Shown: positions 3,271 to 59,843, numbered from the stretch's first letter. The stretch is DNA of 64,000 nucleotides from Octopus vulgaris (GCA_951406725.2 OX597817.1:49228001-49292000), one strand, 5' to 3'. Notes: a model not told the origin generated them from the letters alone. Numbers and translations are program-made.

Positions 3271-3325
3271 GTCTCCGACGAAGGGATATTATTATTAATT
3301 AATATTCTAGAAACAGCTGTAAGAC
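3271..3325 (+). ncRNA. Minimal hammerhead ribozyme motif, family H1 (CCGAYGA core)
   Basis: gtct-CCGACGA-agggatatt...aatattcta-GAAAC-agct-GTA-agac: helix I gtct/agac, AT-rich helix II, palindromic helix III ACAGCTGT. The surrounding element (about 3218-3394) ends at a TA run. Confidence 0.7.
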
Positions 3326-4989
3326 CTTCTATCTATAAATGCTCTAATATCTATACAGCCTTGGTTTTTTTTATCGCATTACGCAGAAAATTCCTATATA
3401 TATATATATACATAGTTACATATATAATATAATATATTATATTGTATTATATAATACGCACGTGTGTGTGTGTGTTTGTGAACGCGTGACTCGGATCTTC
3501 CAATGAGAATCTAGTATACCACCAACAAATAATGAACACTCTTTCAAGCTGAACGAGGCCAAGGCTTTACACAACATGACCATTTGATGGATTAGACACC
3601 TGTTTTATTGACTATATACACTCTGAGAAATGGTATTAACTGCTTACCTACAAGTATATAGTCCACATCGTGCGTTGACAGCTTTTTTATATTTTGCTTA
3701 TAAACGCATGTATGTGCGTGCATGTGTGGATAAATATATATGAACATAGACATACAAGCATATATATACTTATAAATATATATGTGTGTGAGTGTGTATG
3801 TGCATGAATATACGTGTGCGTGAATGTATGGTTGTGTGTGTGTATATATAAATGTATGTATATATATAGATATATATATATATATATATATATATATATA
3901 TATACATATGTACATATGTATGTATCTATGTATTATATATATACGTATATATGCATCTATATATATATGTATATATATATATATGTATATATGTATGTAT
4001 ATAGGTGCATGTATAATATGTATGTATATGTATCTATATATGTATATACATATGTGTATATACATGCATATATATGTATATACATATATATATATATATA
4101 TATATATATATATATATATATATATATATGTCCCATTTTGTATTTTATTTTATATATATATGTAGTGGCGTACGTACACTTTGATCTCTTATATATATTA
4201 ATATATATATATTTATATATATATATATATATACATATATATATATATACACTCATACATATAACTACATAAAAATACACATTTACGTATTTGTACATAA
4301 GTATCTGTAAAAGTAATATTTAAATTTTGTGTCCGAGTGTGTATCTATTTATACATACATGCATACACATGTCAAATTACACACACATACATGATATATA
4401 TATATATATATACACTCACACACATATACATACTTACACACATACACACATACATCTACATACATCCATATATACTAATACGTATGGCTTCGTCGCTGCT
4501 TGTACATCTGTACATGCCATACATAAATATCTGCACTGACTCAAGTGCCATATTATATACATAGCAACATATGTATAATATTATATGCATATTGAGTCTA
4601 TATTAGTTTTTCTTTTTTATATATTCTTGCTTTTGTCTAAATTTTTAACACACTCTACTATTTTGTATACATATCTAATATCATAAGCAGGCATCCAGAA
4701 AGTAAACTTATGAGGTGATAGATTTGCAATATGAAATAAAATCATAAGGACCCAATCAGTTTATAAATGATTGTATTTGGTTACACGAGTGACATTTTTT
4801 AAGAAATAAATTGTAACTCTACCCTAACCTCTTGCCCCGAGGTTAATTGCATAAGAACGCGGTGTAGTGATGCGATTTGGTATATATTTCTGTGAGTGTT
4901 AAACAGATGATAAAATAAAACGAGAAAGGAAAATATACCACTGGCCATCTGGTGAGATGGAGGCAGATTATTATTTTTTTTAGTCTTTT

Positions 4990-5730
4990 AGCCTTTTATC
5001 TTATACTTGTTTCAGTCATTAGACTACGTCCATGCTGGGGCACCGCCTTGAAGAATTTTTAGCTGAAAAGTCGACCCCAGTACTTATTTTTGTTTTTATA
5101 ACAAGCCTGGTACTTATTCTATCGGGCCCTTTTGTCAACTCGCTAAGTTAAATGTACGTAAATACACCAAATACCGGTTATTACGCAGTGATAGGGGACA
5201 AACACAGACACAAACACACACACACACACACACACACACACACAAACACATACATATATGCATACATACATACATACATATATATATATATATATATATA
5301 TGTTTCACTGTGTGGCACCTTGGGCAAGTGTCTTTTACTAGAGCTGTGTTTACGTCCCCGTAACGTAGCGGTTCGACAAAAATGACCGATAGAATAAGTA
5401 CTAGGCTTACAAAGAATAAGTTCTGGGGTGGATTTGTTCGACTAAAGGCGGTGCTCCAGCATGGCCGCAGTCAAATGACTGGAACAAATAAATGAATATA
5501 TATATATATATATATATATATATATATATATATATATATATATATATATATATATATATATAGGATGGGCTTACTTCAGTTTTCCTTTACGAATCCAATC
5601 CAATCACAAGGTTTTAGTCGGACCGAGGCTATTGCAGAAGATACTCGCCCAAGGCATCACGCAGTGGAAATGAAGCTGGCACCAAGTGTTTGAGATACAA
5701 ACCTCTCATCGCACAGCCACGCCTGCGTCT
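4990..5730. mobile_element. Cluster of SINE family A pieces (minus 3' half about 4990-5210, plus about 5305-5490, minus 5' half about 5563-5730)
   Basis: Matches to segments of the 13430-13822 copy; a plus copy appears nested in the internal microsatellite of a minus copy. Confidence 0.75.
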
Positions 5731-6148
5731 GATTGTTTTCTTGTTGTTTTAGAAGCGAAAACCCATTACTCTACAAGAATTTGCGGGTGGGAAAATTGAA
5801 GAACTTAAATGAATATATAATTGTTGGCTGTCAGATAAATTAGTTCATTTAAATGTTTACTTTCCTGTTTCATAATATTTGGACCCTTTCCAATGCTATC
5901 TGAATTAACATGAAAAAAAAACACCAATTATTGTCGTGCTTTATGATTTTATTTTAATTTGTACCTCTGTTCTTCCTCTGTAACTTTTATTTATCGTTTA
6001 TGAAATTTGAATAAATTTTACCTCTTTTCAGACATAAGATGATAATGATGATGATGATGATGATGATGATGTTACAATTAGAAAAATACGAACGAAATTA
6101 TCTCATATTCTAATGCCCACCCACTCAATACACACATACACAATATAT

Positions 6149-6352
6149 AGGCGCTGGCGTGGCTGTGTGGTTAGAAGTTTGCTTCCCAACCACATAGTTC
6201 CGGGTTCAGACCCACTGGACCAAGGACCAACCAAGGCCTTGTGAGTGGATTTGTATGATGGAAATTGAAAGAAGCCCCATCGTATATGTGTGTATGTGTG
6301 TGTGTGTGTGTCTTTGTGTCTGTGCTTGTCTCGCAGACCTCTCGACAACCGG
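6149..6352 (+). mobile_element. SINE family A, 5' half
   Basis: ggcgctggcgtggctgtgtggttagaagtttgcttcccaaccacatagttccgggttcag head with Pol III A/B-box-like motifs. Confidence 0.8.
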
Positions 6353-56947: not shown

Positions 56948-59665
56948 TAATATATATATATATATAAATATATATATATATATATATATATATATATATA
57001 TATATATATATATATATATGTTAATAAAATATATGCATATATATAAACATATATGTACGTACCTACCTCTACATGTACATATACACGCATATATGTGTAC
57101 AGGACACCAAAAGGACGTCGAACACATAGAGAGACGAAAAACATAGACACAAACCAAGGAACAAGACAAGCAAAAAAAAGGAGATACAGGACAATAAGCA
57201 CAACGAAAAATCCCCTTCTTCAGTCGCTAAAGTTTCATCTACTAAACGTTTCAAAGGATAAAAGCGAGACGTATACTTCGAATGAAAAATTCCTTCCTGC
57301 GAAAAGCAAATCAATTAAAATTCTGAGATCTTGTCGCAGAGGGGTAAAAAAAGCAAGACGGTAACGATATATATATATATATATATATATATATATATAT
57401 ATATATATATATATATATATATATATATATATATATATATATATACATATATATATATATATGCATATAGAGATATGATTATGTGTATATACAGTCATAT
57501 ACGCCGCCCATAAACAATATTTATTTACTATCTATATAGTGACTCTTTGTTTCTCATTTTCTCATGCGTTTAAATATACATACATATATATATATATATA
57601 TATATATATATATATATATGTGTGTGTGTGTGTGCGTGTGCATAGAGGGTTAGGTGTCGCATACAGACATTGAATACTGAGAAAAAAGGTCGAAGGAATT
57701 CTGGAAAGAAATACTTTAATTTATTCATTATTAGCGCTTACGTTCGATTCTCGAGCTAGCGGTAATAAAAATAAATAAATAAATAAGATTTTTTCTATTA
57801 TTTTGACGACCTTTTTTCTCAATATATCTATATATTGAGAAATGCATACATAAATGCATACATATATATATATATGTGTATGTATGTATACATGTATATA
57901 TATATGTATGTATGTATGTATGTATGCATGTATGCATATATATATATATATATATATATATATATATATATATTCAAACATATTGACATATGAAGAAAGG
58001 GTCCCAGAGAGAAATAGCGAAGGAGAAGGGGAGAAATTATATAGATATATAGATAAATACAACGGATTGACCGATCGATGCTTATAAGTATATATGTGCA
58101 TGCGTACTATGTGTGGGTCTTTGTGTGACTGTCTGTATGTGTATGCATGTGAGCGTGTATATGTGTGTGTGTGTGTGTGTCTGTGTGTATGTGTGTGTGT
58201 GTGTGTGTGTGTGTGTGTGTGTGTGTGTGTGTGCATTGGACTTTGAAAAAAGTTTCGAAAGCTTTATGACTGTCTATGTGCGTGTATGAATAACATTTAT
58301 ACGCACAAAAATATATACATATTATATATGTATATATATATATATATATATATATATATATATATATATATATATATATGTATGTATATATTTATATATA
58401 TATATATTATATATATATGTATGTATATATTTATATATATATATATATATATATATATATATATATATATATATATATATATATATATATATATATATAT
58501 ATATATATATATATATATATATATATATATATATATATATATATATATATATATGCACACACGCGCACGCACACACACACACACACGCACATATAAAGAG
58601 AGAGATAGAAACAGGAATAAAGGGAACAAGGCATGCGCGTGTTCGTCAAAATTCATTTAATAGATACAGGCATATTCAGTGATCATACCAGATCGAATTC
58701 TTAAAATCGAACCTCAAAAAAACAGGAGACATAATCCATTTAAACAAGAGTTGGCAAGAGGAAATGTCGCGGTGCCGCTTATCTGGACAGGTGGTGGCTA
58801 TACACACACACACACACACACACACATACATATATATATATATATATATATATATATATATATATAGATAGATAGATAGATAGATACATAGATAGATAGA
58901 TAGATAGATAGATAGATAGATAGATATACATACATATGAATACATACATTTGCAGACATACACACACACACACACGTACTTTTATAAGTAGAGTGGAGCC
59001 AATGAAGTTTCGGACGATTAATCTTTGTTAGATAATCCGATGGAGACAATTAGGCCTAGATTTCAAAGTTACTGTCACCACTTTTCTTAAAATATATACT
59101 TTACCAAAAGCATTAATTAATTCTTCAGTTTTATGTAAAATTGTTTCTATTACGACATAAAATCAAACAAACACATTCCCAACAATCCTTCTAAAAGCTT
59201 GTGAGTGAGTCCTAGCAAGACCACTGCAGTCCCTCTTTCAGTGCTTCCTTGCAACTGACAAACTTCCAAGCAAATTCCCGCATGCACCAAATGTCAATTT
59301 CTAAAAAGAATTAGTGAAGTAAAATTATGTAGCAACACCAAATGGCGGTGTCCCAACATAGCCACAGCTCATGTGCTGAAACTAGACCAAATCAATTCAA
59401 ATCAATTGAAATGTATATACACACATATAAACAAGGGTTACGGAATAGAGTAGGAAAGATCCGGGTTATATATGTTTCATAGCGAGCGGGACCTCAGAAG
59501 TGGTAAAATTCAAGTGGTGTGTATACCGCCGGCTACCCTTCCGGCCAAAGATATCTTCTCCTCTCATACTGTGCTCTCTACACATTTTGCCTGAATCATG
59601 TTTGCGCCAACATGGGACAATGTAACTTGGGACAATGTAACTTTTAATCTAATCAAGATATACTT

Positions 59666-59748
59666 GGTCTGAAGAGTAGCCGGCGGTATACACCTCACTT
59701 GGATTTTAGCACTTTTGAGGTTCCACTCGCTATGAAACATACGTAGCC
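59666..59748 (+). ncRNA. Hammerhead ribozyme motif, family H7, tandem copy 1
   Basis: ggt-CTGAAGA-gtagc-(long loop)-gctat-GAAAC-atac-GTA-gcc. Confidence 0.7.
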
Positions 59749-59760
59749 TGAAACATACTT

Positions 59761-59843
59761 GGCCTGAAGAGTAGCCGGCGGTATACACCTCACTTGGATT
59801 TTAGCACTTTTGAGGTTCCACTCGCTATGAAACATACGTAGCC
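59761..59843 (+). ncRNA. Hammerhead ribozyme motif, family H7, tandem copy 2
   Basis: ggc-CTGAAGA-gtagc-(long loop)-gctat-GAAAC-atac-GTA-gcc. Confidence 0.72.

Follow-up and report, generated by a model that had tools for sequence, protein, structure and literature searches.

Hammerhead motifs in an Octopus vulgaris locus and their probable origin in the 3' pseudo-LTRs of Penelope-like retroelements

A 64,000-nucleotide stretch of the Octopus vulgaris genome (GCA_951406725.2 OX597817.1:49228001-49292000; hereafter the window) carries, between positions 3,271 and 59,843, a series of hammerhead-ribozyme-like motifs beside (TA)n repeats, which raises the question of whether these are true hammerheads, what kind of element bears them and how so many short copies arose. 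The comparison presented here indicates that they are very probably minimal type I hammerheads in the 3' pseudo-long terminal repeat (pseudo-LTR) ends of endonuclease (EN)-bearing Penelope-like elements (PLEs). What persists in (TA)n are 5'-truncated short copies, likely dead by-products of the reverse transcription carried out by the coding elements themselves. Motifs of this kind have been known since 2014, opposite-strand pairs and truncated copies included (PMC4209133), and the formation of pseudo-LTRs, tails and inverted ends by PLEs, together with the role of the hammerhead, are questions posed in earlier work (PMC8557442, PMC11167929). A literature search that did not cover Repbase, Dfam or supplements, which may hold these families, returned no report of such motifs in octopus, and the main text of a 2026 octopus repeat annotation (PMC13282606) contains neither 'ribozyme' nor 'hammerhead'. 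The additions made here are the scale of the phenomenon, a strict rule for copy ends with long tails, a 5' wall at which copies begin, and a lineage with U at core position 6 (U6).

A hammerhead-like motif is present in the window sequence at all 15 positions named by the original prediction. A strict minimal-hammerhead descriptor recovers 8 of them, whereas three sets of 100 dinucleotide shuffles yield 0.02-0.05 on average and never more than 1. A relaxed descriptor, permitting an unpaired base behind A9 and two-pair helices, recovers 13 that fit the pattern CUGANGA...GAAA...UH with helices I and II, variants at core positions 4 and 6 included; 12 score at least 10, a value reached by no match in 50 shuffles. 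The two that fail are degenerate: the motif at 35532 has GAAG in place of GAAA, and the helices of 56079 are broken. Two more degenerate copies of the motif were located, at 37380 (+) and at about 59463-59546 (-). Because the relaxed descriptor was tuned on the window motifs, the fair test is the count in a genome sample from outside it, for which 80 stretches of 10 kb were taken at fixed, even spacing from 25 contigs (799,800 bases of a 2.8-Gb genome). This sample holds 38 motifs at a score of at least 10, compared with 0-1 in each of eight shuffles and none in the reversed sequence. Both the predicted motifs and their expected excess over dinucleotide-shuffled controls are thus borne out, in the window and in the genome sample.

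The structure itself leaves further traces. Without any rule for helix III, a palindromic helix III appears in 24 of 30 sample matches and 6 of 7 window matches, compared with 0 of 5 shuffled matches. Compensatory changes, another expectation of the original prediction, are also present: seven of eight base pairs vary on both sides, with 99% of cells paired, a result equalled in 0 of 500 shuffles. The alignment behind these figures consists of 13 hand-picked motifs with a short helix III, 12 of them descriptor matches, and therefore leans towards the structure. A compensated change inside the helix III palindrome also separates two subfamilies of family B. A chance origin of the motifs, from DNA rich in AT and in hairpins, could appeal to the relaxation of the descriptor after the window had been seen, and to RNA folding predictions in which the hammerhead is rarely the lowest-energy fold of a single motif; it is in effect refuted by the excess in the independent sample, the compensatory changes, a palindromic helix III that was found though not required, and the constant place of the motifs behind PLE open reading frames (ORFs). 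The description as minimal type I PLE hammerheads with palindromic helix III and (TA)n targets is upheld. Rfam detects none of this: at the gathering threshold it reports only a tRNA across the whole window and no hammerhead family, and the 150 best of 351 E-value matches include none either.

The 15 motifs collapse to 11 insertions in 7 families, since 12235/12324, 16387/16477 and 44661/44722 are paired arms of single, perfect foldbacks and 59666/59761 is a local 95-bp duplication within one insertion. The original prediction had counted at least six families with unrelated flanks; 12235/12324 and 56807 have a 3' tail in common and both belong to family B.

No PLE ORF remnant was found in the window itself. 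When families are extended upstream in longer genome copies, as the original prediction had proposed, six of the seven continue unbroken, on the same strand, into reverse transcriptase (RT) and/or GIY-YIG endonuclease coding sequence. In family A the endonuclease lies 900 and 220 bp upstream of the hammerhead (copies L182 and L184), and in family B the EN ORF ends 220 bp upstream of a B-type hammerhead (L186). Family E has RT and EN, a 1.1-kb untranslated region (UTR) and the hammerhead in one copy (L138) and forms a 3-kb foldback with RT in another (L181), while family F retains endonuclease remnants upstream on the same strand (L259 and L278). The upstream walk from family C leads to complete hammerhead-ORF-hammerhead elements, that is, pseudo-LTR-ORF-pseudo-LTR (L286 and L285), whose domains match only weakly (RVT_1 E 0.0016 and GIY-YIG E 0.008, both under the Pfam cut-offs). 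Family D has GIY-YIG coding sequence of the same type as C, 700 bp upstream, in L302, which was reached by a walk whose match spanned only 65 bases. Coding evidence thus comprises RT and EN for C and E, and EN only for A, B, D and F. The notion that family E might lack an endonuclease was rejected, as the loss is private to L181 and L138 carries both domains. In L138 (7729-10000), a foldback centre falls within the family E RT gene, with arms over 1 kb.

By their protein motifs, the parents fall into two groups. Those of families A, B, E and F are assigned to Hydra-type PLEs and match an 806-amino-acid open frame (P0002, L131:2522-6923) that has a 3' hammerhead of its own. The motifs RWK and DKT, the CxCx5C linker, CxxC and CxH in the EN, and a (TA)n target are present in P0002, L136, L181 and L186 and decayed in L182, L259, L278 and L138. 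These features agree with those of the Hydra clade of PLEs with a C-terminal endonuclease, namely RWK/RWR, DKT, CxCx5C, CxxC and CxH around conserved E and N, a short single ORF, a hammerhead and (TA)n targets; that source describes few families, whereas at least five with thousands of copies occur here (PMC8557442). P0002 has 720 relatives, nearly all unnamed and many with PF26215, and a weak GIY-YIG match appears in 2 of 30. The parents of families C and D are labelled Neptune-like, since KGLRF, DKG, YIDD, a Cx4CxxC linker and YxGQT occur in L280, L286 and L302; the two histidines of their putative CCHH-type EN were identified by eye. These motifs agree with the published description of the Neptune and Nematis clades, namely GxKF, DKG, a Cx2-5CxxC linker and a CCHH-type EN (PMC8557442). 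Known Neptune/Nematis-type PLEs have the same KGLRF, DKG, YIDD and Cx4CxxC, with CxxC followed by a GIY-YIG-like YxGQT, and also form partial and full tandems; the octopus elements differ in a CA-rich 3' UTR of up to 2.7 kb and in that most copies are solo fragments with a common 5' wall. The RTs of the two groups are homologous (hhalign probability 97.8).

The arrangements expected of pseudo-LTRs are also present: the pseudo-LTR-ORF-pseudo-LTR unit of L286, a 6.2-kb head-to-tail array (L280-L282) and 43 tails-out inverted pairs. The array belongs to a Neptune-like family (L280-L282, G000:C10:97806497-97825130, and L283-L284) arranged head to tail in units of about 6.17 kb with (TA)n at the end. 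Its units are 99-100% identical within and between chromosomes, have open frames of 883-1008 amino acids and occur in dozens of equal-score copies. This very young family is likely still active, and its intact copies and tandem arrays offer material for biochemistry. An inverted pair of another hammerhead family precedes the P0002 element and also lies beside L136, which suggests nesting or co-mobilisation of two families.

The original prediction had taken the window elements for multiple non-autonomous PLE or retrozyme-like families. Six of the seven run into coding PLE copies, none forms head-to-tail arrays of short units beyond one local 95-bp duplication, and no separate non-autonomous master copies were found for the window families; the motifs are 3' pseudo-LTR fragments of coding PLEs and not retrozymes. 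Were they non-LTR retrozymes, cleaved monomers would circularise and be reverse-transcribed into tandem arrays. The head-to-tail pair 59666/59761 has that appearance, but the other family F copies listed are single or inverted, a same-strand repeat within 1 kb occurs for only 1 of the 38 sample motifs and stems from another family, copy ends are fixed rather than circularly permuted, and six families are linked to coding PLEs. Animal non-LTR retrozymes have the type I hammerhead, ORF-less copies and kinship to PLE pseudo-LTRs in common with these families, but are described as head-to-tail arrays with a hammerhead per unit, whereas in the window the families occur singly or inverted and derive from coding elements (PMC7229834; bioRxiv 10.64898/2026.07.22.740005). 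A retrozyme origin is thus very improbable and largely refuted for families A-F. The same guess does apply to a minor part of the genome's motifs: an ORF-less, retrozyme-like tandem family, absent from the window, consists of 545 and 601-bp units (L064:600-2000 and L146:750-2150) in about 2.3-2.5 copies within (TA)n, with a minimal hammerhead in every unit.

How the PLE copies were made is best read from their ends. In families A, B, E and F, the 3' end falls at one of two fixed positions, which lie 142, 81, 72 and about 200 nt apart, respectively. Among their 43 tails-out inverted pairs, all 39 informative ones join one long end to one short end (4 are uninformative), and no long-long or short-short combination occurs; with the single family C pair added, the rule holds in 39 of 40 (p 4e-11). 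Single copies of the same four families display both ends (34 short and 58 long, family F being biased to long by the query), and family C has, beside its one pair, 101 single ends, 83 of them short; Neptune-like copies mostly have a single 3' end in common. Copy ends do not map to the predicted cleavage site, within 3 nt of which only 2 of 75 incidental copies start. A PLE tail at one end only has been described qualitatively, with a length of 30-40 bp (PMC8557442, PMC3846280). In vitro, the tail lies between two internal RT start sites, the protein cuts and extends both strands, and the hammerhead is protein-assisted and dispensable for insertion (PMC11167929). The element used there, Poseidon of Anolis carolinensis, resembles the octopus families in its two ends downstream of the hammerhead, AT-rich targets and ends unrelated to the cleavage site; it differs in belonging to another clade and in start sites that lie close together, and the accessible part of that study holds no statement of a strict one-long-one-short rule for inverted pairs (PMC11167929).

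These observations are consistent with a scheme in which transcription would start in the upstream pseudo-LTR, the element protein would bind downstream of the hammerhead and nick both strands of (TA)n, and complementary DNA (cDNA) would be primed at two internal sites downstream of the hammerhead, one per strand. In Hydra-type elements, the two cDNAs would then join head to head and yield foldbacks. For that last step, snap-back self-priming of one cDNA, or an antisense template, with one tail lost in endonuclease resolution, is an unlikely though serious alternative. It likewise predicts one tail per insertion, fits the palindromes at inverted junctions (window 12300 and 44710), and has been argued as a model (PMC3846280), the tail being attributed to endonuclease resolution in PMC8557442. 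Single, non-inverted copies nevertheless have both end types, both ends match the two internal RT start sites seen in vitro (PMC11167929), and junctions often link arms of different length, one of which reaches 3 kb and contains an ORF in L181, all of which favours joining of two cDNAs. For several families, the positions of both 3' start sites, and of a candidate 5' end, can be read from thousands of naturally made copies.

The 5' end concerns families C and D above all. In family C, the start of 20 of 31 copies falls between -86 and -72 relative to the core, with 8 shorter copies and 3 longer ones, and in family D, 10 of 20 begin at -70 to -62 (7 shorter and 3 longer). The copies counted are the top matches to queries that include just 4 bases before the motif, and 18 of the C copies at the wall were placed by alignment and 2 by eye. 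Incidental copies agree with the wall, and contigs from four public runs have loose ends there. The family D wall sits at a putative initiator-like sequence. In Neptune-like elements, most cDNAs would likely begin in the upstream pseudo-LTR and, some 200 nt later, reach the 5' end of the RNA and run off it, which would produce tens of thousands of near-equal solo fragments. Such copies, likely dead, would lack whatever follows the start site, and the hammerhead would likely be carried along rather than required to set the ends.

The sharp wall and near-fixed length, together with the vast excess of short copies over ORF-bearing ones, could also suit true non-autonomous elements of about 200 bp, SINE-like (short interspersed nuclear element) with an internal promoter, self-transcribed and copied in trans by the PLE protein; promoter sequences do occur in pseudo-LTRs, which are also able to act in trans (PMC2377424, PMC3846280). 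This account of families C and D is nonetheless improbable, as longer copies cross the wall unbroken (3 of 31 and 3 of 20), up to full ORFs, and no variant specific to the short copies was seen, albeit in a weak test. The short copies also stop in (TA)n and do not contain the downstream sequence needed for binding by the one purified PLE (PMC11167929).

Core variants bear on whether the hammerhead works. The unpaired base after A9 and the G10.1-C11.1 pair are present in families C and D; at the place of that pair, A and E have a mismatch, B begins U-A and F begins G-U. U4C is common (7 of 11 family C cores), and helix I contains a mismatch in the youngest C-like family. In family D, position 7 of the core varies freely, but position 6 is U in 12 of 15 sample copies, and U6 was therefore inherited from master elements; at about 15 per 800 kb, this family would amount to roughly 50,000 copies genome-wide. 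A natural A6C variant has lower activity in Mg2+ and favours Mn2+ (PMC3088659, PMC7151607), and a literature search for an A6U hammerhead found no report among the papers listed. As reported for other PLEs, self-cleavage is probably weak here and would take place in a dimer or with the aid of protein. Opposite-strand pairs were considered as ribozyme dimers and rejected: each strand of a foldback has a single sense motif, so no dimer can form within one transcript, and its RNA is predicted to fold into a long hairpin (-148 to -253 kcal/mol) that would bury the motif. If transcribed, foldbacks would give near-perfect double-stranded RNA of 70-170 bp, which, speculatively, might serve as a substrate for RNA editing or small RNAs. 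The GAAG at 35532 was likewise considered as a subfamily mark or as A-to-I editing, and is instead a private mutation: it appears in 22 of 88 family C copies from best-hit searches biased by the use of the window copy as query, and in 0 of 11 sample copies; about 99% of depth at the site in four public runs reads A; and the change is linked to no other site, with no A-to-G excess.

The sample also sets the genome-wide scale. Its 38 motifs extrapolate to about 131,000 intact motifs (bootstrap 78,000-190,000), or about 47 per Mb, and inclusion of degenerate copies of multi-copy families raises the sample count to 73 and the estimate to about 256,000. The genome stock of PLE-tail hammerhead motifs thus likely exceeds 100,000. 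A TA-type microsatellite lies at most 130 nt downstream of 24 of the 38 sample motifs, compared with 15% of random positions, and all DNA examined yields 199 distinct motifs in 47 clusters, 18 with more than one member. The original prediction of a very large complement therefore stands, and Rfam misses these motifs, but the predicted rate of one motif per 4-5 kb is about fourfold too high for the genome, which has one intact motif per about 21 kb, or one per about 11 kb counting degenerate copies; the window is about fourfold richer than the genome (P about 0.002 for at least 12 motifs per 64 kb). In existing annotation, such motifs are probably filed under unknown repeats, SINEs or miniature inverted-repeat transposable elements.

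Among published counts, Schistosoma has about 2,000 plus 1,300, coelacanth 4,000 and Xenopus 9,000 (PMC4209133); Acropora has more than 6,000, and for axolotl as many as 120,000 retrozyme copies are given (PMC7229834). There are also 235 Rfam hammerhead matches in giant squid (PMC6962438). The octopus estimate is about tenfold above the highest published minimal-hammerhead count found, a rough comparison given that the descriptors differ. Metazoan PLE minimal hammerheads, as described in PMC4209133, are otherwise alike: type I, with a helix I of 3-5 bp, an unpaired base after A9 (present here in families C and D) and a palindromic helix III, in many families per genome, mostly as single copies from truncated PLEs, and with opposite-strand pairs 100-700 bp apart. 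They differ in number, at about 2,000-9,000 per genome with another descriptor against about 131,000 here, and in the core variant, U3-A8 being named there against U6 in a major octopus family. We tentatively propose, as a combination we regard with some doubt, that no stock of minimal hammerheads larger than that of this octopus genome (100,000-250,000) is known; that the genome preserves a natural record of PLE priming, in which every Hydra-type foldback arises from two different RT start sites, one on each DNA strand; that tens of thousands of strong-stop-like cDNAs of Neptune-like elements, reaching from the start site back to the transcription start, are an undescribed source of solo pseudo-LTRs; and that the roughly 50,000-copy U6 lineage reflects either a new working core variant or cleavage that is dispensable in vivo.

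Several points weigh against the derivation of these copies from EN-bearing PLEs. It rests on DNA sequence comparison, with cleavage predicted. The Hydra-type assignment derives from motifs rather than a tree with reference PLEs, and the choice between Neptune and Nematis for the second group needs references. P0002 has no Pfam or PDB match, and among the parents of families A, B, D, E and F only broken frames, and no intact ORF, were seen. For the seventh family (14148), no relative or parent was found among the DNA stretches examined. Inverted arms were paired by a greedy distance rule, and many loci come from best-hit searches. The tails of 72-200 nt exceed the 30-40 bp described for PLEs and may have another origin, and the 5' wall could instead reflect microhomology between the elements and their TA targets, or the existence of short masters.

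Table 1. Hammerhead-bearing insertions of the window, with their extents, orientation and ends.
Element	Span	Strand	Hammerheads and ends
Family A (Hydra-type PLE) 3' fragment	3212..3394	+	Hammerhead 3271-3325; short 3' end, then (TA)n
Family B foldback between (TA)n runs	12058..12460	both	Hammerheads 12235-12277 (-), 12324-12366 (+); 81-nt tail on left arm, short end on right arm
Seventh family, decayed foldback (68% self-complementary)	14117..14401		Weak hammerhead 14147-14184 (-)
Family A foldback between (TA)n runs	16235..16596	both	Hammerheads 16387-16438 (-), 16477-16528 (+); of the 142-nt tail, 87 nt remain on the left arm; short end on right arm
Family A relative with inverted 5' segment 19198-19491 (86%)	19198..19656	+	Hammerhead 19538-19585; TATG/TA repeat at end
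Family C (Neptune-like PLE) solo pseudo-LTR fragment	35458..35666	+	Hammerhead 35532-35566, private GAAA to GAAG; starts at the family's 5' wall, ends in (TA)n
Extra family D motif, overlooked by the original prediction	37330..37401	+	Motif begins at 37380; a DNA-transposon-like insertion interrupts it at a TA
Family E foldback between (TA)n runs	44556..44792	both	Hammerheads 44661-44698 (-), 44722-44759 (+); 72-nt tail on left arm, right arm short
Family D (Neptune-like PLE) fragment	51896..52064	-	Hammerhead 51987-52022, U at core position 6; (TA)n at end
Degenerate D-type motif fused to opposite-strand family C 3' end (about 56170-56240), then (TA)n	56044..56240		Motif 56079-56114 (-)
Family B, second subfamily	56619..56950		Hammerhead 56807-56869 (-), long tail; opposite arm 56901-56950, short end only
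Family F foldback	59431..60077		Decayed - motif 59431-59548 (short end); hammerheads 59666-59748, 59761-59843 (+) from local 95-bp duplication; tail about 200 nt

The window contains several other features. The insertion interrupting the extra family D motif spans 37402-38040 and includes an ORF fragment (37545-37934, -) without a Pfam match, whose motifs we presume to be those of a Tc1/mariner DDE domain. A 436-amino-acid open frame of a non-LTR retrotransposon RT (19784-21094; RVT_1 E 4e-25) immediately follows the TA run in which the 19538 element ends, and the tRNA gene lies at 13181-13252 on the + strand (62.5 bits in Rfam). A SINE-like repeat, which resembles mollusc SINEs, occurs at 21900-22424, 9753-10103 and 42273-42689, partly in tandem (183-bp period) and with inverted copies elsewhere in the window. 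Finally, a 444-bp palindrome at 61605-62048, 97% complementary and with no spacer, combines low-complexity and unique sequence and bears no hammerhead; it may be a real foldback or an assembly artefact.

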